A DNA stretch of 32,000 bases from contig WBXG01000010.1 of NCBI GenBank assembly GCA_008932965.1, positions 3,898-35,897 on the forward strand, read 5' to 3'. The DNA comes from Verrucomicrobiota bacterium. Its GTDB lineage: Bacteria > Verrucomicrobiota > Verrucomicrobiia > Chthoniobacterales > UBA6821. Shown in pieces: positions 3,978 to 31,909 of this stretch. A model generated the notes under the pieces. The model saw only the letters and a program-made list of their open reading frames with translations. It made no database searches and was not told the DNA's origin. Position 1 is the stretch's first letter. Each line of letters starts with the position of its first letter. The translations under genes were made by a program, and so were the position numbers.

Positions 3978-5972
3978 GTGGCGAGACAACTTCTTTTGCA
4001 TTGGGAGAAGAATTTTTTTACTCTTGTTGAATGTGTTAGGAATAAAAAAGGAAGATGGTTATTACATCGGGAAGCGACACACGATCTCTCTCAAGAATCT
4101 GATCAAGATCTTCTCCATCAGCAAGCACTGGACCAACTTCAAACTACTCTCACCGCATGGGATGTACGTAAGGCAAGCCTTCATTGCTTGCTACCTGCCG
4201 AAAAGATTTTCCTTAAGACTCTGGTATTAGAAATCCCAGCTAATCTGGAGGATCTCATCCCAGAGATAGTGAGATTAGAGGCAAAAAAAGTTTTCCCCGT
4301 CCCACTCGAGGAGTTGATTTGGAATTTTCAAATATTCCCCTCTCATACCAAGGGAAAGATTTCTATTCTTTACGCTGCAATTAAAAAAAAATCCATTACC
4401 CCTCTCTTGGAGATGAATTTTTTAACAGAGTTAACTCACATATTTCATACTGATTCGTCGCGAGGCACCGCGAATCCTGATGCAGACACCACCGGCGGTC
4501 GGGAGACCGTGGTGGAGACTGCCCTGGCTTTAAGGGGGCAGCCCTGTAAGGGCGAGACGAGCGGGAGTGAGCGAGTCAACGAAGGTGATGGATTGCAACG
4601 ACGGCTGCATGTTTCATACTGCCCGAGGAGCAATTCGAGGCTGACGCAGTATCCATCAGGTGTTCGCAAGCCACAGCAGAATCGGGATGAAATATCCGGG
4701 TTAAACTTTCAAACAATCTCCTCAACGACACAGGCCCTCTGCGAGTCTCTCCAACTCATCAATCAAAACCAAGAGACCACTCTGATCATCGATATTAATG
4801 GGTCATTACCGAACGTGATTTTGATGAAGCCTCAAGAAATAATTATCAGCTACACCCTCGAGCAAAGAGCAGTAGGGAGTTCCCAATTAGGAAAAATAGA
4901 TACTGATCTTTCACGTATCCTGGAGCAGGCGACCTCGCAAAAGATGATTCCAACACAGATTGTTGTGACCGGAAAAAGTGCACAAAAAAATCAGCTACTT
5001 CTCCTTCTACAAAAGAAATACCAGATTCCAATCAAGGATCTCGATGAACTGCTCCTGAATCACCTCTCTTGGTTACCGACAACGCCAGAAAATTTAGAAA
5101 ATAAAAGTGGCTTCTCAAGGAGCTATGTAGCAGGTGCAATCCATTTTTTTACAAAGAAAAATAGAAATATCGTAGCACAAATATTTCATAATCATCAACC
5201 GCAAAGACTGGTAAGCCTGATGGATACTGGGTTGAACTCGAAGTCTTCCTCCGGCAATCTTTACTCAAGACTATGTCATCAGACTTCATCACGTGCCTTT
5301 TCCCATCAAGTTTCACAGCCTCCTTGTCACCATCAGTATGAAATATTCGATCTCAATCTTCTTCCTCCCTCGTTGGTAGCAAAGCAAAAGTTAAAAAAAC
5401 AACAGTCCTATATCCTAGGGGTCATGACACTAATAACATGCACCTTGCTCCTTGGTTCACTCACTATTTACGACCAAACCAGCCGTCTCATTACAGCCAG
5501 TTCACAGGCTACTTTTTTTTTAATACAAGAGGAAAAAAGACTTCTTTCCTTGGATCAAGAGATAGCTAGCTTTCAAAAGGTTGAAGAAAAAAACGGAGCT
5601 TGGTTTAGGCTTCTCCAAGCACATGCAGCTTGGCCTCGAGTGATTCAAGAAATTCAAAAAGCCCTCCCTAAACGTTATCTCTGGATTACACAATGCTCTG
5701 CTAATGATGATCAGAAAAATATCGATAAGACTTCTTCTCTAACTGCCATTACCCTTGAAGGACTCTATCTAGAAAATCCTCGTCAGGCAGATGTCGTCGA
5801 TGATTTTGTTGAAAAACTCAAAAAATCAGATTTTTTTGATATTAAAAAACAAGAGAAGCAACAACTTCTTTGCTCTCCTAATGATGGAAGTGCTTATGCT
5901 TATCCATGGAAGCTTCGAGTGCCACTCAGGAGTCCTATGAATTTCAATCTTAACCCGGATATTTCATACTGA
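3978..5972 (+). CDS. PilM-like / PilN-like pilus or secretion assembly protein as one fused ORF. It is interrupted in frame by two repeat elements and terminates inside a third.
   Basis: 664-aa ORF with a GTG start. The N-terminal ~400 aa is weakly PilM/actin-like (TLIIDINGSLPNVIL). After aa ~458 it has the PilN hallmark LNLLPP, then a basic stretch, a single TM helix (SYILGVMTLITCTLLLGSLTIY), a coiled region and a C-terminal alpha/beta-type domain. Codons ~153-242 and ~400-458 are encoded by repeat elements (see mobile_element features). Confidence 0.5.
   Translation: MARQLLLHWEKNFFTLVECVRNKKGRWLLHREATHDLSQESDQDLLHQQALDQLQTTLTAWDVRKASLHCLLPAEKIFLKTLVLEIPANLEDLIPEIVRLEAKKVFPVPLEELIWNFQIFPSHTKGKISILYAAIKKKSITPLLEMNFLTELTHIFHTDSSRGTANPDADTTGGRETVVETALALRGQPCKGETSGSERVNEGDGLQRRLHVSYCPRSNSRLTQYPSGVRKPQQNRDEISGLNFQTISSTTQALCESLQLINQNQETTLIIDINGSLPNVILMKPQEIIISYTLEQRAVGSSQLGKIDTDLSRILEQATSQKMIPTQIVVTGKSAQKNQLLLLLQKKYQIPIKDLDELLLNHLSWLPTTPENLENKSGFSRSYVAGAIHFFTKKNRNIVAQIFHNHQPQRLVSLMDTGLNSKSSSGNLYSRLCHQTSSRAFSHQVSQPPCHHQYEIFDLNLLPPSLVAKQKLKKQQSYILGVMTLITCTLLLGSLTIYDQTSRLITASSQATFFLIQEEKRLLSLDQEIASFQKVEEKNGAWFRLLQAHAAWPRVIQEIQKALPKRYLWITQCSANDDQKNIDKTSSLTAITLEGLYLENPRQADVVDDFVEKLKKSDFFDIKKQEKQQLLCSPNDGSAYAYPWKLRVPLRSPMNFNLNPDISY
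4435..4700 (+). mobile_element. MITE-like palindromic element, long form (copy A), inside the PilM-like coding region
   Basis: 266 bp flanked by a direct TTAA at 4431-4434 and 4701-4704. The termini are ctcacATATTTCATACTG ... GATGAAATATccggg. It differs from copy B (24049-24314) by about 28 substitutions and no indels. It is GC-rich relative to its surroundings. Confidence 0.8.
5176..5351 (-). mobile_element. MITE-like element, short form, reverse orientation (copy F), degenerate. It lies at the PilM-like/PilN-like junction.
   Basis: It aligns by eye to the reverse complement of copy C. Shared blocks are AAATATTTCAT, CTCGAAGTCTTCCTC, TCAGACTTCATC, TTCACAGCCTCCT.GTCAC.ATCAGTATGAAATAT. The flanks (gtag / ctca) show no clear duplication, and the central palindrome has been replaced. 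Confidence 0.65.
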
Positions 5973-6127
5973 TTGTGACGAGGAGGCTGTGAAGGCTTAT
6001 GGGGCAAGGCGAGCGATGAAGTCTGACGACGGCTGTGTGTACACACTGCCCGAGGAAGACTTCGAGATCAACGCAGCATCCATCTTACTTCCCGGTCTCC
6101 GCAGTAGATCAGAATGAAATATTTGGG
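5954..6127 (+). mobile_element. MITE-like element, short form (copy C), between convergent genes
   Basis: 174 bp. The left TIR is CCCGGATATTTCATACTGAT and the right TIR is ATCAGAATGAAATATTTGGG. TTAA precedes it at 5950-5953. It folds as a long imperfect hairpin around a central TGTGTACACA. The left TIR provides codons P-D-I-S-Y-stop for the 3978..5972 ORF. Confidence 0.8.
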
Positions 6128-9152: not shown

Positions 9153-11147
9153 ATGCTCACTGCTTCTAACTTATCTAAATCTTTTGGTGGCCGTACTCTT
9201 TTTGAAGAGGCCTCTCTTCAAGTCAATCGGGGTGACCGCATTGGTCTTATTGGAGCCAACGGAGCTGGTAAGTCTACCCTTTTTTCTCTTATTCTCAAAG
9301 AAGCCTCCCCCGATTCCGGAGTAATTGCTCTGGAGCGAAATATCCAAATTGGTTTTCTTCCCCAAGAAAATGCTACCTCTGGCAATGAGACCATTTTGGA
9401 ATTAGCCACTGGAATTAATCCAGCAATGGAAGAAGCTCATCGGCTCTTGCGTGAGCACCCCAACCATGAAGATCCACTACATCATGAGGGACAGGCCCTC
9501 TTTGCTGAAAATGAGGGCTATGCCCTTGAGGCCAAAGCAAAACGGATCTTGAATGGCCTTGCCTTTCGTGAAAACGACTTTAACCGCATGGCCCGCACCA
9601 TGAGTGGTGGTTGGATCATGCGGGCACACCTTGCTCGTCTCCTCGTCTTAGAACCTGACCTGCTGATGTTAGATGAGCCGACGAATCACTTGGATCTAGA
9701 ATCCCTTGGCTGGTTTCAAAATTATCTCATTAATTATAGCGGGGCCATTCTAGCCATTTCTCATGATCGCGAATTCTTAAATGTGATTTGTGAATCGATT
9801 CTTCAAATTAGTCATCGCAAACTTCATCACTATCGAGGCAACTTCGATTCTTTTCTGGAACAAAAAGCTGCTCGAGATGAACAACAGCTTGCTGCTTATA
9901 AAAGTCAGCAACGTGAAATTGTAGAGATCCAACGTTTCATCGATCGCTTTAGAGCGAAAGCAAGCAAAGCCTCTCAAGCTCAAGATCGTATGAAACAACT
10001 TGCTCGTATGGTTCGTATTGAACCACCAGAACGTGCCGAATCAACTGTTCATTTTCGTTTCCCTCAGCCAGTTCGTAGTGGACAGCGTGTTGCTCGCTTA
10101 ACAGATGTTAAACAGGCTTATGGGGCTCATGTGGTCTATGAAAATCTCAACCTGGAAGTAGAACGTGGACAACGCACTGTCCTTGTCGGGCCTAACGGTG
10201 CTGGAAAATCGACCTTATTAAAAATCCTTGCAGACATGCTTCCTCTGGAAGCTGGGACCTATGAACATGGTCATAACAGTTCGATTGGTTATTTTGCACA
10301 ACACCGGACCGAAATGATGGATCTAAAAAAAACAGTGCTCCAGGAAGTTATGAGTATTCCCAAGCCAGTTGCCGAACAGACAGCACGCACCATCCTGGGC
10401 TCTTTTTTATTTCGTGGAGAGGATGTCTTTAAACCAGTGGCAGTCTTAAGTGGTGGAGAGAAAAGTCGTTTAGCTCTCGTAAAACTGCTCCTAGATCCTC
10501 CTAATTTTTTACTCCTCGATGAACCGACCACTCATCTTGATATGCCAAGTATTGATGCTCTCATTAGTGCATTAAAACAATATGAGGGAACCTTATTGTT
10601 TGTGAGTCACGATGTTTATTTTATCAAAGCCTCTGCAACAAGTGTCCTTCATATTAATGCTGGAGATGTCACTCCCTATGCTGGTGACTATAATTATTAC
10701 TTAGAAAAATCGGGAGCAATTTCGGAAAAAGCAGCCCTTGTCTCACCCGGGAATGGACCATTACTGAGTAACTCCCAGCCTCAGAAACTTGTTTCTACCG
10801 CTCCTGCAATACCCAAGATGGGTCTCAAAGAGATCAAAGCGCTTCGTAAAGCAGAGGCAGAAAAAAGAAAAACTGCCAATAAGCTACGACGTGAGCTTGA
10901 AAAAGAGATTGCAGCACTTGAATCAACTATTGCTAATTTAGAATCTGAAAAAAACCGTTTGGAAGCAGCTCTTGAAGATCCTATTTCCTACGAAAAAGGA
11001 ACGACTTTTCAACTCAATCGTGAACTTTCAGTGACTTTAGCAACATTAGAAAGAACAACATGCCGGTGGGATCAACTCACCACAAGGTTGACTCAAGAGT
11101 ATCCTGAAGCATTCTTAACAAAGGAAGATGAGATTGTCATTCAATGA
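9153..11147 (+). CDS. ABC-F family ATPase (two ABC domains, no TM domain, C-terminal coiled coil)
   Basis: 664 aa. It has two Walker A motifs (GANGAGKST, GPNGAGKST), two signature motifs (MSGGW, LSGGEK), two Walker B motifs (LMLDEPTNHLD, LLLDEPTTHLD), an inter-domain linker and a K/E-rich C-terminal coil. Confidence 0.9.
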   Translation: MLTASNLSKSFGGRTLFEEASLQVNRGDRIGLIGANGAGKSTLFSLILKEASPDSGVIALERNIQIGFLPQENATSGNETILELATGINPAMEEAHRLLREHPNHEDPLHHEGQALFAENEGYALEAKAKRILNGLAFRENDFNRMARTMSGGWIMRAHLARLLVLEPDLLMLDEPTNHLDLESLGWFQNYLINYSGAILAISHDREFLNVICESILQISHRKLHHYRGNFDSFLEQKAARDEQQLAAYKSQQREIVEIQRFIDRFRAKASKASQAQDRMKQLARMVRIEPPERAESTVHFRFPQPVRSGQRVARLTDVKQAYGAHVVYENLNLEVERGQRTVLVGPNGAGKSTLLKILADMLPLEAGTYEHGHNSSIGYFAQHRTEMMDLKKTVLQEVMSIPKPVAEQTARTILGSFLFRGEDVFKPVAVLSGGEKSRLALVKLLLDPPNFLLLDEPTTHLDMPSIDALISALKQYEGTLLFVSHDVYFIKASATSVLHINAGDVTPYAGDYNYYLEKSGAISEKAALVSPGNGPLLSNSQPQKLVSTAPAIPKMGLKEIKALRKAEAEKRKTANKLRRELEKEIAALESTIANLESEKNRLEAALEDPISYEKGTTFQLNRELSVTLATLERTTCRWDQLTTRLTQEYPEAFLTKEDEIVIQ

Positions 11148-11210
11148 GAATGCATCCAATCGAAGATGATACGCTAGGAGCTGCTCTTTAGATTTAAAAG
11201 ACTATAAATT

Positions 11211-11660
11211 TCAAATAATATTTTGATGAAGTAGTATTAAAATATTATTTAAAGCATGTTGTATCGTCTCACAACAGTGTTGATATGTTTCTAGATTGCC
11301 TCCGATAGGATCGATGACATCCTCCTGTGTGATTCCTTCATTAAGTAAAAAAAACTTTTTTTGGTGCTCAGGATAGAGGAAGAGGAGCTCTCGAAGATGA
11401 TCGCGGGTCATTGCAAAAACATGGGTTGATTGCTCGATTAAAAACGGGGTAACAGGCTGACTTTTAAATAAAGAAAAATCGATGCCATGCTCTGACAAAA
11501 CCGCATTAGTAAATGAACTTGCAGAAAGGCCCCGTGCTGCATGCAGACCAGCAGAAGCAACAGTAAAACCGTGATTCTCTTCTACCATTTTTTGAAAAAG
11601 CCCATGAGCAATTGGACTTCTACACGTATTACCGGTACAAACAAAAAGTATCCTCTTCAT
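11211..11660 (-). CDS. Low-molecular-weight protein-tyrosine phosphatase family protein
   Basis: 149 aa. It has the N-terminal P-loop VCTGNTCRSP (CX5R-S) and a downstream D-P loop (VIDPIGG). Confidence 0.85.
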   Translation of the reverse strand: MKRILFVCTGNTCRSPIAHGLFQKMVEENHGFTVASAGLHAARGLSASSFTNAVLSEHGIDFSLFKSQPVTPFLIEQSTHVFAMTRDHLRELLFLYPEHQKKFFLLNEGITQEDVIDPIGGNLETYQHCCETIQHALNNILILLHQNII

Positions 11661-12530: not shown

Positions 12531-12842
12531 GAGCACCACAGCGACACAGCACTTCGCTGCAGAAGATATTTTTTAAAATGAAATTTCTTTTTTAATCGCT
12601 CTTATGCTGATGAAATGCAAGAAGTCGAGGAGCACAGATGACGAGCGTATAGTTAATACGTGAGAAGTCGAGCACCACAGCGACACAGCACTTCGCTGCA
12701 GAAGATATTTTTAAAATGAAATTTCTTTTTTAATCGCTCTTATGCTGATGAAATGCAAGAAGTCGAGGAGCACAGATGACGAGCGTATAGTTAATACGTG
12801 AGGAGTCGAGCACCACAGCGACACGGCACTTCGCTGCAGAAG
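12531..12842. repeat. Tandem direct repeat, 2.25 copies of a 138-139-bp unit, immediately upstream of tRNA-Ser
   Basis: Units start at 12531, 12670 and 12808 (GAGCACCACAGCGACAC...). Copies 1 and 2 are nearly identical apart from one T-run length difference and a few substitutions. Copy 3 breaks off after GCAGAAGA. Confidence 0.9.
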
Positions 12843-12861
12843 AGCGATTAAAAAAGAAATT

Positions 12862-12953
12862 GGAAGGATGGCTGAGCCTGGTTGAAGGCACTCGACTCGA
12901 AATCGAGCGTAGGGTTAAACCTACCGTGGGTTCGAATCCCACTCCTTCCACCA
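12862..12953 (+). tRNA. tRNA-Ser (anticodon CGA), CCA encoded
   Basis: The acceptor pairs GGAAGGA/TCCTTCC. The anticodon stem is CTCGA/TCGAG with loop CTCGAAA. There is a long variable arm GTAGG-GTTAAA-CCTAC. The T arm is GTGGG-TTCGAAT-CCCAC, followed by the discriminator A and CCA. Confidence 0.92.
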
Positions 12954-12962
12954 TTTTGGAGG

Positions 12963-13054
12963 CCCGGTTAGCCGGGTATCACCATCCTTTGACTGCCTTG
13001 TACTAATGAAGCTTTGTACGGCGCCTTGCGACAGATCAGTATGAAATATCAGGT
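12963..13054 (+). mobile_element. Truncated or degenerate MITE-like copy (copy E), right half only
   Basis: The right terminus GATCAGTATGAAATATCAGGT matches the family right TIR and is followed by TTAG (13055-13058). Upstream, GTATCACCATCCTTTGACTGCCTT resembles GCATCCATCCTTGCTTCCCGTCCT of copy D. The left boundary is uncertain (CCCGGTTAGCCGGG hairpin at 12963-12976). Confidence 0.5.
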
Positions 13055-13341
13055 TTAGTATACAGAGGATTTTTTGAAATGAAGGTAGCAGATATTTTTT
13101 TTGCCTTTTTACTAACTAGTGAAAATTCTATTGGCATTTTTAAAAAATCCCCGGGGAATCCACTGAGGGTCGGATTACTGCTTCCTCCAATGATGATGGG
13201 TAGAAGAACAATAAAAAGCTCCTCGAGGTTTTGGATATTGGGATACAACGAGGTTGAAGCAGGTATTTTAAATTCCTCACATAGCAAAGGGTCATTAATG
13301 AGCTTCCCGTCAATGCTCATGAGGACCTTCAATAATGCCAT
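13036..13341 (-). pseudogene. RibD C-terminal-domain / DHFR-like reductase remnant (internally shortened), ending inside copy E
   Basis: 101-aa ORF. The start (KVLMSIDGKL) and end (LEELFIVLLPIIIGGSSNPTLSG) resemble the two ends of RibD_C-type reductase domains. Only about 30 aa lie between them, where roughly 100 would be expected. The C-terminus KPDISY-stop is encoded by the element TIR. Confidence 0.4.
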
Positions 13342-21943: not shown

Positions 21944-23971
21944 CTAAATCCTCTGAGCTATATCCTCTCTAAGCCAGTTCCAACGGTCTTCTAGCTCTTT
22001 TTTTAGCATTTTTTTAATATCCACAAGATCCTTGATAGAGAATTTTTCAGACTCAGGTTTTTGTGAAGCAAAGAGATAAAATTTAATTTTTGGTTCTGTT
22101 CCTGAAGGACGAACCACCACTCGATTATCTCCCTGAAGTTTAAAAATCAACATCGACTCTTGTGGCAAAACTTCCCCTTCACTATCAACAATTATTTCCG
22201 TGGAATAATTTTGAAATGCAGTCACCGGCTCTCCATGAATAGAAGTAAAAGGATGTTGAATATAAGAATGAATGAGAGATTGCATTTTAAGAGATCCCTG
22301 AGCCCCTTCAAAAGCTAATGACTCTCCACATTCATGGTAGTACCCATAGTCACAATAAATTTGATCAAGGAGCTCCAAGAGGCTTGTTTGCTTGCTTGCC
22401 GCATAGGCAGCAGCTTCACAAAAACCGAGAGCTGCTGCATTAGCATCTTTATCACGCACAAAATCACCCAAGCTATAACCATAACTCTCTTCCCCTCCAA
22501 AAACAAAGTAACTGGATCCTTCAAGTCGTGCCTCTCGGGATTCCTCTGCACTTAGGATACGATATTTTTTTTGAAACTCTTGAGAAAGTTGATGCTCATA
22601 GTGTGTTAATTTTGCTCCGATATATTTAAAACCAGTAAGTGTTTCTACACAGCGAACTCCAAATTTCTCAGCAATCGCTTTTTGAAGATCCGTTGTCACA
22701 ATACTCTTAATGAGGAGAGCATTTTTTTTATTTTTTTTATTGAGGAGACCTTGTTCAAAAAGAGTCTTCAAACGATACCACGCCATCAGTGATCCAATCT
22801 GATTTCCCGTAAGCAACTCTAAGGAGCCTGATCCATTACGAACAGCCACTCCCATTCGATCTGCATCAGGATCTGTAGCAATAACAAGGTCCGCTTTTTC
22901 TTGTTCTGCCAGAGCTATCCCTAAGGTGAGTGCCTCCGAATTTTCGGGATTAGGTGATTTTACTGTAGAGAAAAATCCATCAGGCAGCATCTGCGAGGCA
23001 ACAGGCAAGCATTCCACACCAACACTCCTAAGAAGTGGTACAATAATGGATCCACCCACACCATGAAGAGGGGTATAGACAACCTTTAATTTTTTTTCAA
23101 ATAAGGAGGGCTGCAAAACAAGACTCTTCAATCTCTTTTTGTAAGATCTATCCAAAGCCTCCCCCAAAAAGATAATTTTGCCACATTGCCAAGGAGGAAG
23201 TGGAGTGTACTGTTCACCTTCCATTTGATCAACCAAAGCAATGATTGCGGAGGCATGGGGTTCAATCACCTGTCCTCCATCCTCAAAGTAGACTTTATAA
23301 CCATTGTAGGCAGGAGGATTATGGCTTGCTGTAATATTGATTCCTGCTGTAGCAGCACATTCTCGAACAGCAAAAGAGAGTTCTGGTGTGGAACGAGGTG
23401 CCTGAAAAATTAATGCATCACACCCATGTTCTGAAATCACTTTTGCTGCTAACTCTGCAAATTCTCTTGAAAAAAATCGAGTGTCATAGCTAATGCAGAT
23501 TTTAGGATTTCTAGAATGATTCTTTTGTTGGTGCCATTGGAGTACATAAGTAACGAGACCACGCGTCGCTCTAATAATATTATAATTATTAACAGCATTT
23601 GTGCCGATACATGAAAATTGAGGACGTCCATCGGGCCGCTTTATACCTGCCTCTGCAGAGGTCACAATATCCCCTATTGTCTTTCCTCTTAACCCACCCG
23701 TCCCAAAGGCAAGGGTGCGAAAAAAACGATCATTAAGCTCAGCCCACGCTTTTTGATCCAACAATTCCGTGATCACACGCCTGGGGAATGAGGAGGAGGC
23801 TTGTTTTAAGAGCTGCTTCATATTCTGAGCAGAACTCTCAAGTAGATCTCCTGCTTGCGCTGCCTTCGAAATTGCACTCATGAGCTCTCCTTGCAATTTG
23901 AGTTCCTCAAAAGAAAGGTGCTCCTCCTTTTCAGGAAAAGGAGAATCAGGGTTATTAGATTGTTGATTCAT
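21944..23971 (-). CDS. Alpha-D-phosphohexomutase (phosphoglucomutase/phosphomannomutase family)
   Basis: 675 aa. It has the active-site loop TASHNPPAYNGYKVY, metal loop ATDPDADR, sugar loop GGEESYG, and phosphate-binding RPSGTEPKIKFY. Confidence 0.9.
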   Translation of the reverse strand: MNQQSNNPDSPFPEKEEHLSFEELKLQGELMSAISKAAQAGDLLESSAQNMKQLLKQASSSFPRRVITELLDQKAWAELNDRFFRTLAFGTGGLRGKTIGDIVTSAEAGIKRPDGRPQFSCIGTNAVNNYNIIRATRGLVTYVLQWHQQKNHSRNPKICISYDTRFFSREFAELAAKVISEHGCDALIFQAPRSTPELSFAVRECAATAGINITASHNPPAYNGYKVYFEDGGQVIEPHASAIIALVDQMEGEQYTPLPPWQCGKIIFLGEALDRSYKKRLKSLVLQPSLFEKKLKVVYTPLHGVGGSIIVPLLRSVGVECLPVASQMLPDGFFSTVKSPNPENSEALTLGIALAEQEKADLVIATDPDADRMGVAVRNGSGSLELLTGNQIGSLMAWYRLKTLFEQGLLNKKNKKNALLIKSIVTTDLQKAIAEKFGVRCVETLTGFKYIGAKLTHYEHQLSQEFQKKYRILSAEESREARLEGSSYFVFGGEESYGYSLGDFVRDKDANAAALGFCEAAAYAASKQTSLLELLDQIYCDYGYYHECGESLAFEGAQGSLKMQSLIHSYIQHPFTSIHGEPVTAFQNYSTEIIVDSEGEVLPQESMLIFKLQGDNRVVVRPSGTEPKIKFYLFASQKPESEKFSIKDLVDIKKMLKKELEDRWNWLREDIAQRI

Positions 23972-24048
23972 AAAAAAAAGTGATCATGACGGTCAAAGAT
24001 GGATTTTATAAAATAGCCAAGAACTAACAATTGAAAACTACGGGCTAG

Positions 24049-24314
24049 TCCGCATATTTCATACTGGTTCGTTGCGAGGCGCAGCAAATCCTGATACAGA
24101 CACCACCGGCGGTCGGGAGACCGCGGTGGAGACTGCCCTGGCTTTAAGGGGGCAGCCTTGAAAGGGCGAGACGAACGGGAGCAAGCGAGTCAATGAAGGT
24201 AACGGATTGCGACGACGGCTGTATATTTCATACTGCCCAAGGAGCAATTCGAGGCTGACGCAGTATCCATCAGGTGTTCGCAAGCCGCAGCAGAATCGGT
24301 ATGAAATATGCAGG
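24049..24314 (+). mobile_element. MITE-like palindromic element, long form (copy B), intergenic
   Basis: 266 bp flanked by a direct CTAG at 24045-24048 and 24315-24318. The termini are tccgcATATTTCATACTG ... GTATGAAATATgcagg. An internal third TIR-like motif (TATATTTCATACTG) lies at 24222-24235. A hand count gives about 55% GC. Confidence 0.85.
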
Positions 24315-24854
24315 CTAGAGCCGTGATAAAGATTTTTGGATGATCTCCACCTCGGTGCCTTGACCAACACTCTCATCAAGACGAATTGCATCAGAAGAAC
24401 TAATACGAATACAACCATAACTCTTAGGATGTCCGAGCGATCGCTCCTCTGGAGTACCATGAATGTAGATACAACGTTTATATGCATTTCTGTTACAACT
24501 CTCTTTTCCCTTGAGCCAAAAAATACGTGTCACAATTGGGTCCCGACCGAATGCATTGGGTAATAAAATTTCCCCTGTTGGCTTTGTATCCTTAAAAACC
24601 ATTCCAGAAGGGGCACCCGATCCGATTTTTTGACAAAGTGTAAAATGCCCCAGGGGAGTTTTATAGCTTCCCATAGTATCTCCTGTTCCATACTTAGAGG
24701 TAGAGACAGGATAGGAGGCCATGGGACGTCCATCTTCATAAACAATCATCTTCTGCTCTACTGTGCTAACAACTATTTTATGGTGTCGATCACCAGCGCA
24801 GCCAGTAAGTAGCAGCAATGAGATAAAACATAAAAACCGCAGTAAAAAAAACAT
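24315..24854 (-). CDS. L,D-transpeptidase (YkuD domain) lipoprotein
   Basis: It has a lipobox LLLTGCAG and the catalytic motif IHGTPEERSLGHPKSYGCIRISSSDA. Its stop codon lies inside the CTAG duplication of element copy B. Confidence 0.85.
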   Translation of the reverse strand: MFFLLRFLCFISLLLLTGCAGDRHHKIVVSTVEQKMIVYEDGRPMASYPVSTSKYGTGDTMGSYKTPLGHFTLCQKIGSGAPSGMVFKDTKPTGEILLPNAFGRDPIVTRIFWLKGKESCNRNAYKRCIYIHGTPEERSLGHPKSYGCIRISSSDAIRLDESVGQGTEVEIIQKSLSRL

Positions 24855-24982: not shown

Positions 24983-25972
24983 ATGAAAAAAGTGAAAAGC
25001 GCTTTTATCCTAGCAGCTGGTAAAGGAACACGTTTGCGCCCACTTACTGAAAAAATACCTAAGCCCCTTCTGCCGGTTTTTCACAAGCCACTGATGACAT
25101 TTGCACTCGATCATTGTATCGCCCTTGATATTGAAAATATCTCTATAAACACATGTCACCTCTATGAGGCTTTCTATGATGCTTTTCAAGTCCAAGAGGT
25201 ACAAGCTAGTTTTGGCCTAGGTCATTATGAGGGCAGAACACTTACCCTTTTTCATGAAAATCCGATCCTAGAAACTGGGGGCGCTCTGCGTAATGCTCGT
25301 TCCGTTTTGGAACAAGGAACTTTTCTCGTGCATAATGGTGATATTTTAACCGATGCCCCCCTTCAAGATCTCATCGATCATCACATTCAATCAAAGTCTA
25401 TGGTAACGCTACTCCTACGCCATGAGGGAGCTGCCAAAAATGTTGCTTATAATGTCAGCAGTGGCGAAATAGAAGGATTTAGTGGCACTTGGAATTCTCT
25501 ACCGTCTCTTGCCACAAAAAACTCTCTTCCTATGGTCTATACAGGCATTGCAGTAATGGAGCCTTCCTTCCTAGATTGGATTCCGATTGAAGGTCCATCA
25601 TCGATGATACCTGCTTTCACAAAAGCTATTGAGCACAAGCAAAAAGTTGGAGGTTTTCTTCTCCCTCACAATTATTTTTGGAGTGATCTTGGAACACCAG
25701 CATCTTACCTCCAAACCCATCTTCATATCGCTCAAAACAATTGGAGACCTCCTTACAAGCTAGGTAAAAAGCACCTTTCATGGCCACAAGCTATTCATCC
25801 TTCAGCCACCATTGACTCTTCTGCCAAACTCGATGGAATGGTAGTTGTAGGAGCTCATACCCATATTGCACCAGGTGCACACTTGAAAAACTGCGTCATC
25901 CTTCCAAGAACAATCATCACCCAGGATGCTCATTTCTCAGAAATGATTCTTAGCCCGGATATTTCCTACTGA
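24983..25972 (+). CDS. Sugar-phosphate nucleotidyltransferase (NTP_transferase family) with a C-terminal left-handed-helix-like tail
   Basis: It has the N-terminal motif LAAGKGTRLRPLT, and hexapeptide-like repeats near the C-terminus. The last codons, PDISY-stop, are supplied by the TIR of element copy D. Confidence 0.75.
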   Translation: MKKVKSAFILAAGKGTRLRPLTEKIPKPLLPVFHKPLMTFALDHCIALDIENISINTCHLYEAFYDAFQVQEVQASFGLGHYEGRTLTLFHENPILETGGALRNARSVLEQGTFLVHNGDILTDAPLQDLIDHHIQSKSMVTLLLRHEGAAKNVAYNVSSGEIEGFSGTWNSLPSLATKNSLPMVYTGIAVMEPSFLDWIPIEGPSSMIPAFTKAIEHKQKVGGFLLPHNYFWSDLGTPASYLQTHLHIAQNNWRPPYKLGKKHLSWPQAIHPSATIDSSAKLDGMVVVGAHTHIAPGAHLKNCVILPRTIITQDAHFSEMILSPDISY

Positions 25973-26130
25973 TCGTGACGAGGAGGCCGCGAAGGCTGAT
26001 GGGGTAAGGCAGGCGAGCATTTTGATGCAGGGCTGTATGTGTACATACTGCCCAAATCAAAATGGGAGTCTAACGCAGCATCCATCCTTGCTTCCCGTCC
26101 TCCGCAGTAGATTAGTATGAAATATCCGGG
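25954..26130 (+). mobile_element. MITE-like element, short form (copy D), between convergent genes
   Basis: 177 bp. The left TIR is CCCGGATATTTCCTACTGAT and the right TIR is ATTAGTATGAAATATCCGGG. The flanks are TTAG (left) and TTAA (right). There is an internal perfect 9-bp stem CATTTTGAT (26018-26026) / ATCAAAATG (26056-26064). Confidence 0.85.
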
Positions 26131-26150
26131 TTAAATAAGAAACATTCGCT

Positions 26151-27581
26151 CTAGTAGCGATAATGCTCCGTCTTATAAGGTCCTTCGATTGGAATCTCCA
26201 AATAATCCGATTGTTCTGGAGTAAGCTTTGTCAACTTTACTCCAATTTTTTCTAGATGGAGGCGTGCCACTTCTTCATCAAGTATTTTTGGCAGAATATA
26301 AACACCTATCTTGTTCTCATGTCGATTTTTCCATAGCTCAATTTGAGCCAGTACCTGATTGCTAAAACTGTTACTCATCACAAAGCTGGGATGACCAGTA
26401 GCACAGCCGAGATTGACTAGACGTCCTTCAGCGAGAAGGAAGATTTCGTGTCCATCTGGAAATGTGTATTTATCGACCTGTGGTTTAATGTTTGTCTTTT
26501 TGATTCCAGGGAATGTGACAAGATTATCAACTTCGATTTCATTATCAAAGTGGCCAATGTTACAAACAATGGCCTGGTTTTTCATCTTTTTCATATGCTC
26601 CAGGGTGATCACTTTGAAATTCCCCGTTGTTGTTACATAAATATCTCCACGACCTAATGTCTCCTCCACGGTAGTTACTTCATATCCTTCCATCGCAGCT
26701 TGAAGAGCATTAATGGGATCGATCTCAGTAATAATCACACGTGCCCCTTGACCTCGTAGTGATTGAGCAGAACCTTTTCCTACGTCACCATAACCACAAA
26801 CAACAGCCACTTTGCCTGAGATCATGACATCAATAGCTCGATTCAGACCATCAACGAGTGAATGGCGGCATCCGTAGAGATTATCAAATTTCGTTTTTGT
26901 AACAGAATCATTGACGTTGAATGCTGGAACCAAGAGTTTTCCTTGCTCGTGAAGCTTATAAAGACGATGTACCCCTGTTGTTGTCTCTTCTGAAACACCT
27001 TTCCAATCCTTGACCATATCATGCCAGCAGGTTGGATTTTCAGTATGAATTTTTTGGAGTAAATCTTTAATGACTTGCTCTTCCTCATTGCTAGAGGGAG
27101 TCGTCACCCATGTATCTCCATTTTCAAGTTCGTAGCCTTTGTGAAGCAGCAGGGTAACATCACCACCATCATCGACAACAAGCTCAGGACCTTGGCCATG
27201 AGGATGTGAGAGGGCTTGGTAGGTACACCACCAATATTCTTCAAGAGATTCACCCTTCCATGCAAAGACAGGAACCCCAATGGCAGCCATTGCTGCAGCC
27301 GCTTGGTCTTGTGTAGAAAATATATTACAGCTAGCCCAACGAACACTTGCTCCCAATTCAATCATTGTTTCTATGAGAACAGCAGTTTGAATGGTCATGT
27401 GCAATGAGCCAGTGATACGAACGCCAGAAAGGGGCTTTGACGAAGAATATTTGTTTCTAATACTCATGAGCCCAGGCATCTCTTGCTCGGCAATAGAAAT
27501 TTCTTTGCGCCCCCAGTCTGCAAGAGAGAGGTCAGCAACTTTGAAGTCAGAAAAGGAGGTCATTGAGGTTGGAGTGTTCAT
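26151..27581 (-). CDS. ahcY: Adenosylhomocysteinase
   Basis: 476 aa with strongly conserved motifs ([36 protein letters not shown]). Confidence 0.95.
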
Positions 27582-30109: not shown

Positions 30110-31909
30110 TTATCTTTTTTTTCTACTATTAGTATTCGCTTGGTCTAGTCCTTCAGCTTTCATTTTTAAATCCTTTGCTTCTTCATATTTTTGCTGAATT
30201 ATTTTTTGATTAGGTTCTGGCTTTTGTGCTTCCTGAGCTGCATACCAAAGAAATTCCCCTGCTTCATTAAGGTATGTTGCTTTATTATTCTGACCTGCAG
30301 CATATGCCTCTGCAGCCCGTTGATACATGCTTGCTAACTGAGTAAACAAATCTATAATTTGAGGATTGGGATTTGGCTCTCGTGTTTCTCGAGCTACATT
30401 AAAAAGAGAATCCCCTGCATTACTAAGGCACTCTGCTTTTTTATTCAAACCTTCAGCTTCTGCCTCTGCGGCCTGTTGATGCAAGCTTGCTGACTGAGTA
30501 AACCAATCAATGCTTTGTTGATTAGGTTGTGGCTTTTGTGCCTCCATATCAGCCTCAGAAAGAGAAATCCCTGCATCATTAAGGTATCTTGCTTCATTAT
30601 TCTGATCTACAGCTTCTGCCTCTGCTGCCTGTTGATTCAAGCTTGCTAACTGAGTAAAGCAATCAATGCTTTGTTGATTAGGTTCTGGCTTTTGTGCTTC
30701 CTGAGCTGCATTAAAAAGAGCATCCCCTGCATTATAGAGGTTAACTGCTTTATTATTCTGACCTTCAGCTTTCGCCTCTACGGCCTGTTGATGCAAGCTT
30801 GCTGACTGAGTAAACCAATCAATGCTTTGTTGATTAGGTTCTGGCTTTTGTGCTTCCTGAACTGCATTATGAAGAGCCCATCCTGCATTATAGAGGTTAG
30901 CTGCTTTTGTATTCTGACCTGCAGCACTTGCCTCTACAGCCTGTTGAAAAATACCTGCTGACTGAGTAAGCCAATCAATACATTGTTGATTAGGTTCTGG
31001 CTTTTGTACTTCCTGAGCCATATTATGAAAAGTCCACCCTGCATTACAAAGGTACCCTGCTTTTTTATTCAAACCTTCAGCTTCTGCCTCTGCGGCCTGT
31101 TGATGCAAGATTGCTGACTGAGTAAACCAATCAATGCTTTGTGGCTTAGGTTCTGGCTTTTGTACTTCTAGAGCTACATTAAAAAGAGCAACCCCTGCAA
31201 TATTAAGATACTCTGCTTTTTTATTCAAACCTTCAGCTTCTGCCTCTACGGCCTGTTGAGAAGAGCTTGCTGACTGAGTATACCACTCAATTATTTGTTG
31301 ATTAGGATTTGGCTTTTGTGCTTCCTCGGCCGCATGAAAAAGAGCATTCCCTGCATTATTAAGGTATATTGCTTTATTATTCTGACCTGCAGTTTCTGCC
31401 TCTGCGGCCTGTTGATGCAAGCCTGCTATCTGATTATACCACTCAATTATTTGTTGATTAGGATTTGGCTTTTGTGCTTCCTCGGCAATTTCTTGAAACA
31501 TCACTGCTGCTCTATTTAAGAAGGACTGGCTATTACCAAGAGGAAGCAATGGAACTTGAGCGAATAGATCTTCACTTTGAGCCAGCGCTTCTTCTTTAAT
31601 GCAGAGCCATTTATTTGCTAAAAAAACGGCCTGTTGGTCTTCATGGAGCGTTTCATAAGGTGGGCGTAACACTGTGGCAGAAGCGACTCTGGCTCCAATA
31701 AGATTAGACTGATGAGTGATCGCATTAAGGAGATGTCCACTGTTAATTAACGTAGGATGATCTTCTCCCATTGGCTCAATTTGTTGGGCTATCTCTATCT
31801 CACTTTCTAGTTGTTGCGATCTCTCTTGATAAGTGGCTAGTTGGGCGTAATCGATTTCCAGTTTTTCTGCTAGTACCTCGATTTTATTGGGGCGCTCATT
31901 GAGTTTCAT
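30110..31909 (-). CDS. Tandem-repeat protein (about 8.3 x 52-aa helical-looking repeats). No signal peptide is evident.
   Basis: 599-aa ORF. The repeat consensus is roughly AQKPEPNQQSIDWFTQSASLHQQAAEAEAEGQNNKA.YLNNAG.ALFNAAQE. It has a non-repetitive ~140-aa N-terminus and a short basic tail. Confidence 0.7.
   Translation of the reverse strand: MKLNERPNKIEVLAEKLEIDYAQLATYQERSQQLESEIEIAQQIEPMGEDHPTLINSGHLLNAITHQSNLIGARVASATVLRPPYETLHEDQQAVFLANKWLCIKEEALAQSEDLFAQVPLLPLGNSQSFLNRAAVMFQEIAEEAQKPNPNQQIIEWYNQIAGLHQQAAEAETAGQNNKAIYLNNAGNALFHAAEEAQKPNPNQQIIEWYTQSASSSQQAVEAEAEGLNKKAEYLNIAGVALFNVALEVQKPEPKPQSIDWFTQSAILHQQAAEAEAEGLNKKAGYLCNAGWTFHNMAQEVQKPEPNQQCIDWLTQSAGIFQQAVEASAAGQNTKAANLYNAGWALHNAVQEAQKPEPNQQSIDWFTQSASLHQQAVEAKAEGQNNKAVNLYNAGDALFNAAQEAQKPEPNQQSIDCFTQLASLNQQAAEAEAVDQNNEARYLNDAGISLSEADMEAQKPQPNQQSIDWFTQSASLHQQAAEAEAEGLNKKAECLSNAGDSLFNVARETREPNPNPQIIDLFTQLASMYQRAAEAYAAGQNNKATYLNEAGEFLWYAAQEAQKPEPNQKIIQQKYEEAKDLKMKAEGLDQANTNSRKKR
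30190..31500 (-). repeat. 156-bp tandem coding repeat array inside the 30110..31909 CDS
   Basis: The motif TTGTTGATTAGGTTCTGGCTTTTGT, or close variants of it, recurs in phase at 30203, 30359, 30515, 30671, 30827, 30983, 31139, 31295 and 31451. The period is exactly 156 bp. Confidence 0.9.

Follow-up and report, generated by a model that had tools for sequence, protein, structure and literature searches.

A modular hairpin transposon family of Chthoniobacterales in which pairing of one strand is preserved

Introduction

A hairpin-forming element of 177 nt lies at positions 25954–26130 (+ strand) of a 32-kb stretch of Verrucomicrobiota DNA (contig WBXG01000010.1 of assembly GCA_008932965.1; the whole 32,000-nt stretch is referred to here as the window). 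This element, copy D, belongs to a modular MITE family (miniature inverted-repeat transposable elements, which are non-autonomous DNA transposons) of Chthoniobacterales (Verrucomicrobiota). Hairpin MITEs are a known kind of element. The present example is previously undescribed and unusually clear, and no description of such elements in Chthoniobacterales was found in the literature. Both between and within the sub-families of the element, one strand has kept its hairpin pairing. In propagating lineages this pairing is under selection on the element's + strand, as single-stranded DNA (ssDNA) or as RNA. We place the probability at about two in three (0.68) that the family is a modular MITE that inserts at YTAR targets, is mobilised in trans, and is aided in its spread by pairing of the + strand.

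Whole-length hairpins of bacterial MITEs are usually put down to the origin of the elements or to vague "RNA effects". The family described here is abundant, old, divided into several sub-families and common to several species, which makes it a clean test of the hairpin question. The family combines covariation with a wobble bias that is confined to the helices and to one strand and that tracks the element, not the host gene; together these indicate that a single-stranded form is important for its own spread. This host-independent bias and a coding-compatible design are the two noteworthy features of the family.

Results

Copy D is a short-form element of sub-family II. It carries 21-nt terminal inverted repeats, CCCGGATATTTCCTACTGATC at 25954–25974 and GATTAGTATGAAATATCCGGG at 26110–26130 (both given on the + strand), and is flanked by its target-site copies TTAG (25950–25953) and TTAA (26131–26134). 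Members of the family are bounded by CCCGGATATTTCATACTG...CAGTATGAAATATCCGGG, with terminal repeats beginning CCCGGATATTTCATACTG and an overall anatomy of CCCGG-ATATTTCATACTG ... CAGTATGAAATAT-CCGGG. All five full copies in the window end in ATATTTCATACTG...ATGAAATAT. Elements measure 176–177 nt, about 266 nt with a 90-nt extra module, and about 125 nt when the inner cassette is missing. Their only open frame is a read-through of 60 or 90 codons, with no Pfam match, and they hold no transposase open reading frame (ORF).

A pattern scan of reference genomes with a query from the right arm of the element detected it in at least seven metagenome-assembled genomes (MAGs) labelled Chthoniobacterales, Spartobacteria, Chthoniobacter or Verrucomicrobiia. 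Within 563 kb of sequence (85 loci from at least seven MAGs), nhmmer returned 219 matches, 124 of them full length and of unambiguous orientation. Several Chthoniobacterales MAGs contain dozens of copies per genome. Scan matches in Clostridiales, Bacteroidota, Lachnospiraceae and similar groups (L012, L019, L046, L063, L070) were rejected as chance and had no nhmmer match.

Identical tetranucleotides flank 54 of 115 copies (TTAA/TTAA in 34, CTAG/CTAG in 15, TTAG/TTAG in 5), and most of the remaining flanks are one transition from identity. The target duplication is thus a 4-bp YTAR (TTAA, CTAG or TTAG), whose palindromic nature also strictly allows for a TA duplication inside YTAR. Neither sub-family nor nearest relative predicted the type of duplication (31 same versus 29.9 expected); therefore, the tetranucleotide derives from the target and not from the element. 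The target duplication and the 21-bp terminal inverted repeats together identify the family as a MITE. An earlier reading of the window from its letters only (the sequence-only reading) had implied a MITE in its wording without stating it, and the terminal repeats, the YTAR duplication and the many dispersed copies now supply what was left implicit. Sub-families I–IV occur in four species. Identity between species (0.84–0.93) resembles that within genomes (0.87–0.93), and the closest pairs within a genome are 98–99% identical, which indicates a family that is old yet recently active.

Several side observations concern the arrangement of the elements. At 13 places, two elements abut and share exactly one YTAR (CCGGG-TTAA-CCCGG), for example at L007:162-520, L068:6880-7237, L081:1866-2226 and L055:6795-7136. 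The members of such pairs often belong to different sub-families and have the same orientation in 12 of 13 cases (p = 0.003). Neighbouring elements that are not adjacent lack orientation concordance (42 same, 30 opposite), and on these counts replication direction was ruled out as the cause of element orientation. At the hairpin apex of all copies, the core of the terminal repeat recurs (ATGTTTCATACTG or ACATACTG) and stands opposite an inverted near-copy (CTGTATG), as at 4609–4621 and 24223–24235 of the window. Two inverted units of about 88 nt, joined as a dimer, may have given rise to the 177-nt element.

The two 85-nt arms of the element are complementary up to a conserved apical palindrome, so that a single strand forms one hairpin of 63 pairs. 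Copy D has a predicted folding energy of −83.7 kcal/mol (z = −6.95), and copy C, a sub-family I element in the same window, reaches −75 kcal/mol (z = −5.5); 0 of 200 shuffles folded as well in either case. In copy D the apical palindrome GGGCTGTATGTGTACATACTGCCC (26030–26053, + strand) includes CATACTG, a motif resembling the terminal repeat. It is the best-conserved interior segment, with 79–92% identity between sub-families. The consensus sequences of six sub-families share one fold architecture at −88 to −98 kcal/mol.

Covariation was assessed on an alignment of eight lineages, consisting of the six consensus sequences and two divergent single copies, for which RNAalifold predicted 63 pairs. 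When RNAalifold was applied to all 119 aligned copies, only 15 pairs were recovered; chimeras and module differences disrupt that consensus, and the sub-family-level alignment was used instead. Paired cells made up 90.6% of the eight-lineage alignment, compared with 82.5±0.9 in shuffles. Changes on both sides were observed at 24 of the 63 pairs, compared with 12.5±2.2 in shuffles (0/500) and 5–12 in slid controls. Five of the six helices covary, including the inner helix, where one position is U-A, C-G or G-C depending on the sub-family. The outer 21 pairs (helix 1) are 94.6% paired over the eight lineages, with ATATTTCAT...ATGAAATAT invariant. Within sub-families, 18 isolated compensated pairs were found. 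Double transversions are among these (GC>CG at the terminal pair in four sub-families, TA>CG, GC>TA). Asymmetric loops, such as GTGACGA / CGCAGTA following the terminal repeats, are likewise kept across sub-families. Core helices accumulated 0.30 substitution events per site and loops 0.41 (p = 0.009). The suggestion of the sequence-only reading that the helices covary and that the hairpin looks selected was borne out by these results and by the wobble bias described next.

To compare the strands on equal terms, the two arms were aligned against each other in a test that treats both strands alike, and a helix mismatch was called isolated when two matches stood on each side. Isolated mismatches were G:T on the + strand in 139 cases and A:C in 20, a ratio of about 6:1. 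The excess held for distinct variants (50 versus 8, p = 1.6e-8) and for singletons (35 versus 8, p = 4e-5). Loop mismatches were unbiased (490 G:T versus 459 A:C on the + strand), and mutation bias was ruled out as the source of the excess, the loops being free of it. Among 121 core Watson-Crick pairs, changes from the sub-family consensus comprised 31 wobble-creating transitions, 9 A:C-creating transitions (p = 7e-4) and 32 transversions. The asymmetry is visible only for mismatches isolated in helices; all arm mismatches together, counted symmetrically at the consensus level, gave 27:25. A G:U versus A:C count on the RNAalifold structure (42:10) was rejected as biased, since that structure had been predicted on the + strand. 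A bias confined to helices and to one strand is explicable by selection for pairing of the + strand, and not by blind copying of one arm onto the other or by recognition of the ends as double-stranded DNA (dsDNA).

Folding energies agreed with this strand assignment. With RNA parameters the + strand was the better folder in 116 of 124 copies, and with DNA parameters this was so in 113 of 124. For copy D, the two strands reached −83.7 and −71.8 kcal/mol with RNA parameters and were about equal with DNA parameters (−39.7 versus −40.8). Because both parameter sets favour the + strand, they do not separate RNA from ssDNA as the paired form. Comparing G-U with C-A mismatches and folding both strands were checks that the sequence-only reading had proposed, and both single out the + strand.

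The family comprises at least six sub-families whose arms differ in part by 40–75%, each with arms complementary to one another. For cassette typing, four arm segments were clustered across an alignment of 119 copies, and each segment fell into discrete types. Cognate combinations of inner-left and inner-right arms predominate. The type of copy D, CATTTTGAT/ATCAAAATG, occurs in 29 copies and that of copy C, GAAGTCT/AGACTTC, in 26. The combinations GGATTGTGAT/ATCACAATTC and GGATTGC/GCAATTC account for 16 copies each, and two rarer types for 5 and 3 copies. In copy D the inner-helix arms lie at 26018–26026 and 26056–26064 (+ strand), and in copy C at 6018–6024 and 6057–6063. The sequence-only reading had pointed to these helices, which differ between C and D but share one offset (the two elements are otherwise 80% identical), and every string and coordinate that it quoted for C and D was exact. 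It had also correctly noted that copy F keeps the C-type pair and that the long forms have a pair of their own, which in copies A and B is GGATTGC/GCAATTC. Its conserved internal loop was upheld in part: GACGACGG and CCCGAGGA form a non-complementary stretch in A, B and C, which has degenerated in F, but the loop is restricted to the related sub-families I and III, and sub-families V and VI have a continuous helix there.

Sub-families I and II are identical in the left repeat and the outer-left arm (100% each) and close in the centre (92%), the outer-right arm (97%) and the right repeat (95%). Their inner-left and inner-right arms are only 25% and 41% identical. The contrast between C and D is therefore one cassette exchange and not a series of independent compensations. 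Block replacement had been named beforehand as a possible source of the difference, and on this evidence the C/D contrast counts as one event. Inner-left arm, apex and inner-right arm together behave as a cassette that can be exchanged, and sub-family II combines the outer arms of sub-family I with an inner cassette related to those of sub-families IV–VI. The inner-right arm of the D cassette is 71–76% identical to that of sub-families IV–VI, and within these related cassettes single pairs have switched (G-C, U-A and C-G at one position). About 20 of 119 copies (~17%) are left/right chimeras, whose hairpins are weaker (mean −67 versus −84 kcal/mol). Two species carry one chimera type, with the left outer and inner arms of I and the right inner and outer arms of III, at six or more loci in total, and every one of these has a separate target duplication.

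Such exchanges raise the question of whether complementarity could be kept without structural selection, by template switching between the arms (quasipalindrome correction or fold-back synthesis) and by recombination between sub-families. The compensated double transversions, which have no wobble intermediate, would fit this explanation, as would the block swap between C and D. Chimeras and mosaic sub-families also show that recombination is frequent. However, template switching discriminates neither between strands nor between types of mismatch, and it would predict neither the G:T excess in helices nor the unbiased loops. Internal loops and bulges should also be lost under such a process, but identical asymmetric loops are retained from one sub-family to another. 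We therefore consider it unlikely as the full explanation of the preserved pairing.

The relation of the elements to host genes bears on a second explanation, in which individual copies are RNA elements domesticated by the host and selected locus by locus as terminators, mRNA 3' stabilisers or RNase III targets, comparable to Correia, ERIC and YPAL elements. Copies C and D lie at the 3' ends of convergent gene pairs, and the wobble bias is present even among singleton variants, as a host function would lead one to expect. The copy shared by L001:3440-3616 and L061:7117-7293 differs at 3 of 177 nt, compared with 90 of 900 in the surrounding ORF (p = 6e-5). Stable hairpins in MITE transcripts and effects of RNase III or RNase E have also been published (PMC10969869, PMC3184786). 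The low divergence at L001/L061 is a single case in two species, for which nucleotide-level selection, gene conversion and parallel insertion are all candidates.

Several results were at odds with such a host role. The ratio of G:T to A:C was 25:5 for elements antisense to their genes, 5:2 for co-oriented ones, 27:4 in convergent and 25:6 in divergent contexts, and 22:3 (antisense) and 18:1 (co-oriented) within ORFs. The wobble bias is thus equal in every gene orientation and follows the element, which makes it element-intrinsic and not imposed by read-through transcripts of the host. Between tandem genes, the better-folding strand was antisense in 26 cases and sense in 10 (p = 0.011; crude ORF calls). 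Full copies lie within ORFs in 27% of cases. No U-tract follows the hairpin on either strand (the sequence downstream of D is GTTAAATAAG). Copy D contains no promoter or terminator consensus, and the only terminator-like site nearby (26160–26146, minus strand) is outside the element, with none in D or at its edge. No Rfam 15 family matches: at the gathering score the window yields only its two tRNAs, and the best match on D is sR23 (12.2 bits, E = 0.94). The terminator or 3'-untranslated-region role put forward in the sequence-only reading is not supported by these data, and locus-by-locus domestication appears improbable as the general cause of the hairpin.

Copies inside genes are largely compatible with coding. 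Counting element and duplication together, the modal insert measures 180 nt, exactly 60 codons (71 of 113 copies), and that of the long form is 270 nt. Thirty-one of 113 full copies are inside ORFs, and 30 of these have a length that is a multiple of 3. Read from the TTAA target, the frame TTA ACC CGG ATA TTT CAT... contains no stop codon in about half of the copies, and this holds for both orientations. The frame T TAA stops immediately, and the frame TT AAC CCG GAT ATT TCA TAC TGA stops after NPDISY, which is the effect of copies C and D on their upstream genes. Confirmed host genes encode PheT (with the insert between the tRNA_bind and B3_4 domains), ComEC, 4-alpha-glucanotransferase, an FtsX permease and a PilM-like protein; an Amt transporter and a GspD secretin likewise carry an element-coded segment. 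In-frame 60-codon copies in genes are represented by L021:3222-5786, L078:235-2763, L067:1473-3383 and L049:1320-4154 and by proteins P0004 and P0005. Public protein sets from Chthoniobacterales and Verrucomicrobiae MAGs also contain dozens of "hypothetical proteins" of 49–104 residues (P0009–P0044) that are the translated element. These entries are annotation artefacts.

A third explanation is that the arms match as long transposase binding sites read as dsDNA, with sub-families and transposases co-evolving and the hairpin as a by-product. The outer 21 bp are indeed the best conserved and best paired part of the element, and in sub-families V and VI the region beside the terminal repeat has changed at both ends together (CACTTTC / GAGAGGG). 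However, covariation continues through the helices to the apex, 65–85 nt from the ends, and recognition of dsDNA could not distinguish G:T from A:C differences between the arms. Inner cassettes have been swapped between sub-families with the same ends, and chimeras that combine the arms of different sub-families still transpose. We regard this explanation as quite unlikely.

HUH Y1 enzymes are not known to make target duplications. A REPIN-like system, in which an HUH tyrosine transposase (RAYT or an IS200/IS605 relative) mobilises hairpin ssDNA, would directly account for strand-specific hairpin selection and would be in line with the GTAG (I, II, V) or CGTC (III, IV) of the right internal loop, which are REP-family tags (PMC3733652), and with the compensatory changes of REPINs (PMC3116915), but it is highly improbable given a real target duplication, in which the tetranucleotide differs between loci without regard to element lineage, the presence of 21-bp terminal inverted repeats, and the lack of a RAYT-like gene in the sequence examined (none among the Pfam-scanned ORFs, in genomes that were not searched exhaustively).

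The window contains five full copies and one fragment in 32 kb. It is an ordinary chromosomal region (41.7% G+C) with recR, sufB/D, metK, ahcY, nuoA, a radical-SAM gene and two tRNAs. Copy D is placed between convergent genes for a nucleotidyl transferase (24983–25972, +) and S-adenosylhomocysteine hydrolase (26151–27581, −), and a TGA at 25970–25972, inside its left terminal repeat, now terminates the upstream ORF. Copy B (24049–24314, +) is a long form 92% identical to copy A, flanked by CTAG at 24045–24048 and 24315–24318; it lies between two minus-strand genes, for phosphoglucomutase (21944–23971) and a YkuD L,D-transpeptidase (24315–24854). A solo 40-nt element end resembling sub-family III is located at 13019–13058 (−), 66 nt downstream of tRNA-Ser.

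The other three copies, A, F and C, are all borne by a single PilM-like gene (3978–5972). Copy A (4435–4700, +) is a long form with sub-family III arms and the 90-nt extra module, flanked by TTAA at 4431–4434 and 4701–4704. It adds 270 nt (90 codons) to the gene in frame, and the orthologs P0002 and P0003 are without this insert. Removal of the element and one TTAA in silico restored ...E-L-N... in the protein comparison with these orthologs. Copy F (5174–5349, −) is a degenerate sub-family I copy that is read through in frame; orthologs have an element-coded segment of their own at this site (IFHTDRDEE...). Copy C (5954–6127, +) is a short form of sub-family I with TTAA at 5950–5953 and a degenerate right flank (CTCA), and it replaced the last 14 residues of the PilM-like ORF with NPDISY*.

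The window, which is not among the contigs that the pattern scan matched, is syntenic with contig L007 of a related species (~85% identity). Intergenic DNA was too diverged for an empty site to be read at the DNA level. At L007:6148-6271, a spacer holds a deletion form of about 125 nt (outer arms only, TTAA flanks), and the window counterpart (11133–11213) is without an element. Two further copies lie past the end of synteny in L007, near the position of the window's tRNA-Leu. Two tandem repeats were also observed in the window. A 138-nt repeat (12531–12843; 2.3 copies, 98% identical) immediately precedes tRNA-Ser(CGA) (12862–12953), and a 156-nt (52-codon) repeat (30202–31482; 8.2 copies, ~79% matching) lies within a 599-residue ORF (30110–31909, −). 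This ORF encodes a repeat protein of unknown type with no Pfam match.

Discussion

The reading that we favour is a modular YTAR MITE whose + strand pairing helps it to spread. Insertion at YTAR with duplication would be the signature of a staggered-cut transposase, presumably a DDE enzyme acting in trans. Pairing of the + strand would be needed in a proliferation step intrinsic to the element, either as ssDNA during mobilisation or as an element-specific transcript. Such a step is suggested because helices tolerate G:T while A:C and other mismatches are depleted, whatever the orientation of the host gene, and because helices gather only moderately fewer changes than loops. Chimeras with weak hairpins have spread, so the hairpin would help spread without being strictly required.

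Several points weigh against this reading. An autonomous element or transposase with the same ends was found neither in the window, nor in the 563 kb (85 loci), nor beside solo ends, nor among proteins sharing MITE peptides. This search covered pairs of terminal repeats 0.4–4 kb apart, long repeats among the loci, Pfam domains in ORFs beside solo ends, and MITE-peptide proteins. Insertion sequence (IS) copies are often lost from MAG assemblies. Since no transposase was found, the target duplication is the one feature from which the mobilising enzyme and its mechanism are deduced. Cut-and-paste transposition of dsDNA by a DDE enzyme also offers no obvious reason for strand-specific hairpin selection. 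The multiplication of one chimera type indicates that perfect cognate pairing is not required for spread. Over all paired sites, the substitution density of stems (0.39) is close to that of loops (0.41), and the deficit is confined to the core helices. Copies share descent and their counts are not independent, a problem that counting distinct variants and singletons lessens but does not remove, and gene orientations came from crude ORF calls.

A more far-reaching version, which we offer as a tentative and rather unlikely proposal, is that the one-strand hairpin, as ssDNA or element-made RNA, could itself be the functional form recognised in mobilisation despite the DDE-type target duplication, in an element that also has the coding-compatible design of Rickettsia palindromic elements (RPEs). 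If true, the family would propagate in a way so far undescribed among MITEs that have terminal repeats and target duplications, and a design of exactly 60 or 90 codons, with one read-through frame in either orientation and prompt stops in the remaining two, would open essential genes of free-living bacteria to the element. For the annotation of Chthoniobacterales MAGs, the family accounts for many small "hypothetical proteins" and for odd inserts of 60 or 90 residues.

Comparison with known systems

By target and end signature, the IS5 group, IS1380/piggyBac-like elements and IS630 are candidate mobilisers. The IS5 group makes a 4-bp YTAR duplication, and IS630/Tc1-mariner elements duplicate TA inside CTAG or NTAN. 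The present family shares such targets (TTAA, CTAG, TTAG) and its ends read CCCGG...CCGGG; no transposase was found, and hence none of these groups can be assigned. The IS1380/piggyBac signature is a TTAA duplication with CCC...GGG ends; piggyBac uses a TTAA target and has terminal repeats starting with CCC, and IS1380 is its prokaryotic relative (PMC10813416).

REPINs are likewise hairpin-forming miniature mobile DNA with compensatory changes. In REPINs these changes preserve the hairpin and have been taken as evidence for a single-stranded functional form (PMC3116915). REPINs consist of two short REPs, are linked to RAYTs and lack a target duplication, whereas a target duplication and genuine terminal inverted repeats are both found here.

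The family also resembles ERIC/YPAL (Yersinia), Correia/NEMIS (Neisseria), bcr1 (Bacillus cereus) and QMITE (Coxiella) elements, bacterial MITEs that form a hairpin over their whole length. These are alike in size (125–270 bp), terminal inverted repeats, target duplication, many dispersed copies, absence of a transposase gene and a very stable predicted stem-loop. Long RNA stem-loops are a classic feature of bacterial MITEs, whose transcripts form stable stem-loops, and effects of RNase III or RNase E have been reported for Correia and ERIC elements (PMC10969869). The structure of bcr1 was reported to be kept by compensatory changes (PMC3184786). The likeness is one of features, with no sequence similarity seen. 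The present family differs in its host phylum, its YTAR duplication and CCC...GGG ends, its exchangeable inner cassette and optional 90-nt module, its exact 60 or 90 codons, and a strand-specific wobble bias that is independent of host transcription.

RPEs, palindromic repeats some 150 bp long, enter unrelated coding genes in frame and leave them undestroyed (PMC10969869, PMC3733652). In-frame insertion within functional protein-coding genes is found here as well. The present hosts are free-living freshwater Verrucomicrobia and not an obligate intracellular alphaproteobacterium, and terminal repeats and target duplication are clear in the present family; the likeness is by features, with no sequence relationship known. 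The family thus provides a second clear case, outside Rickettsia, of in-frame palindromic repeats in housekeeping genes (pheT, comEC, pilM-like).

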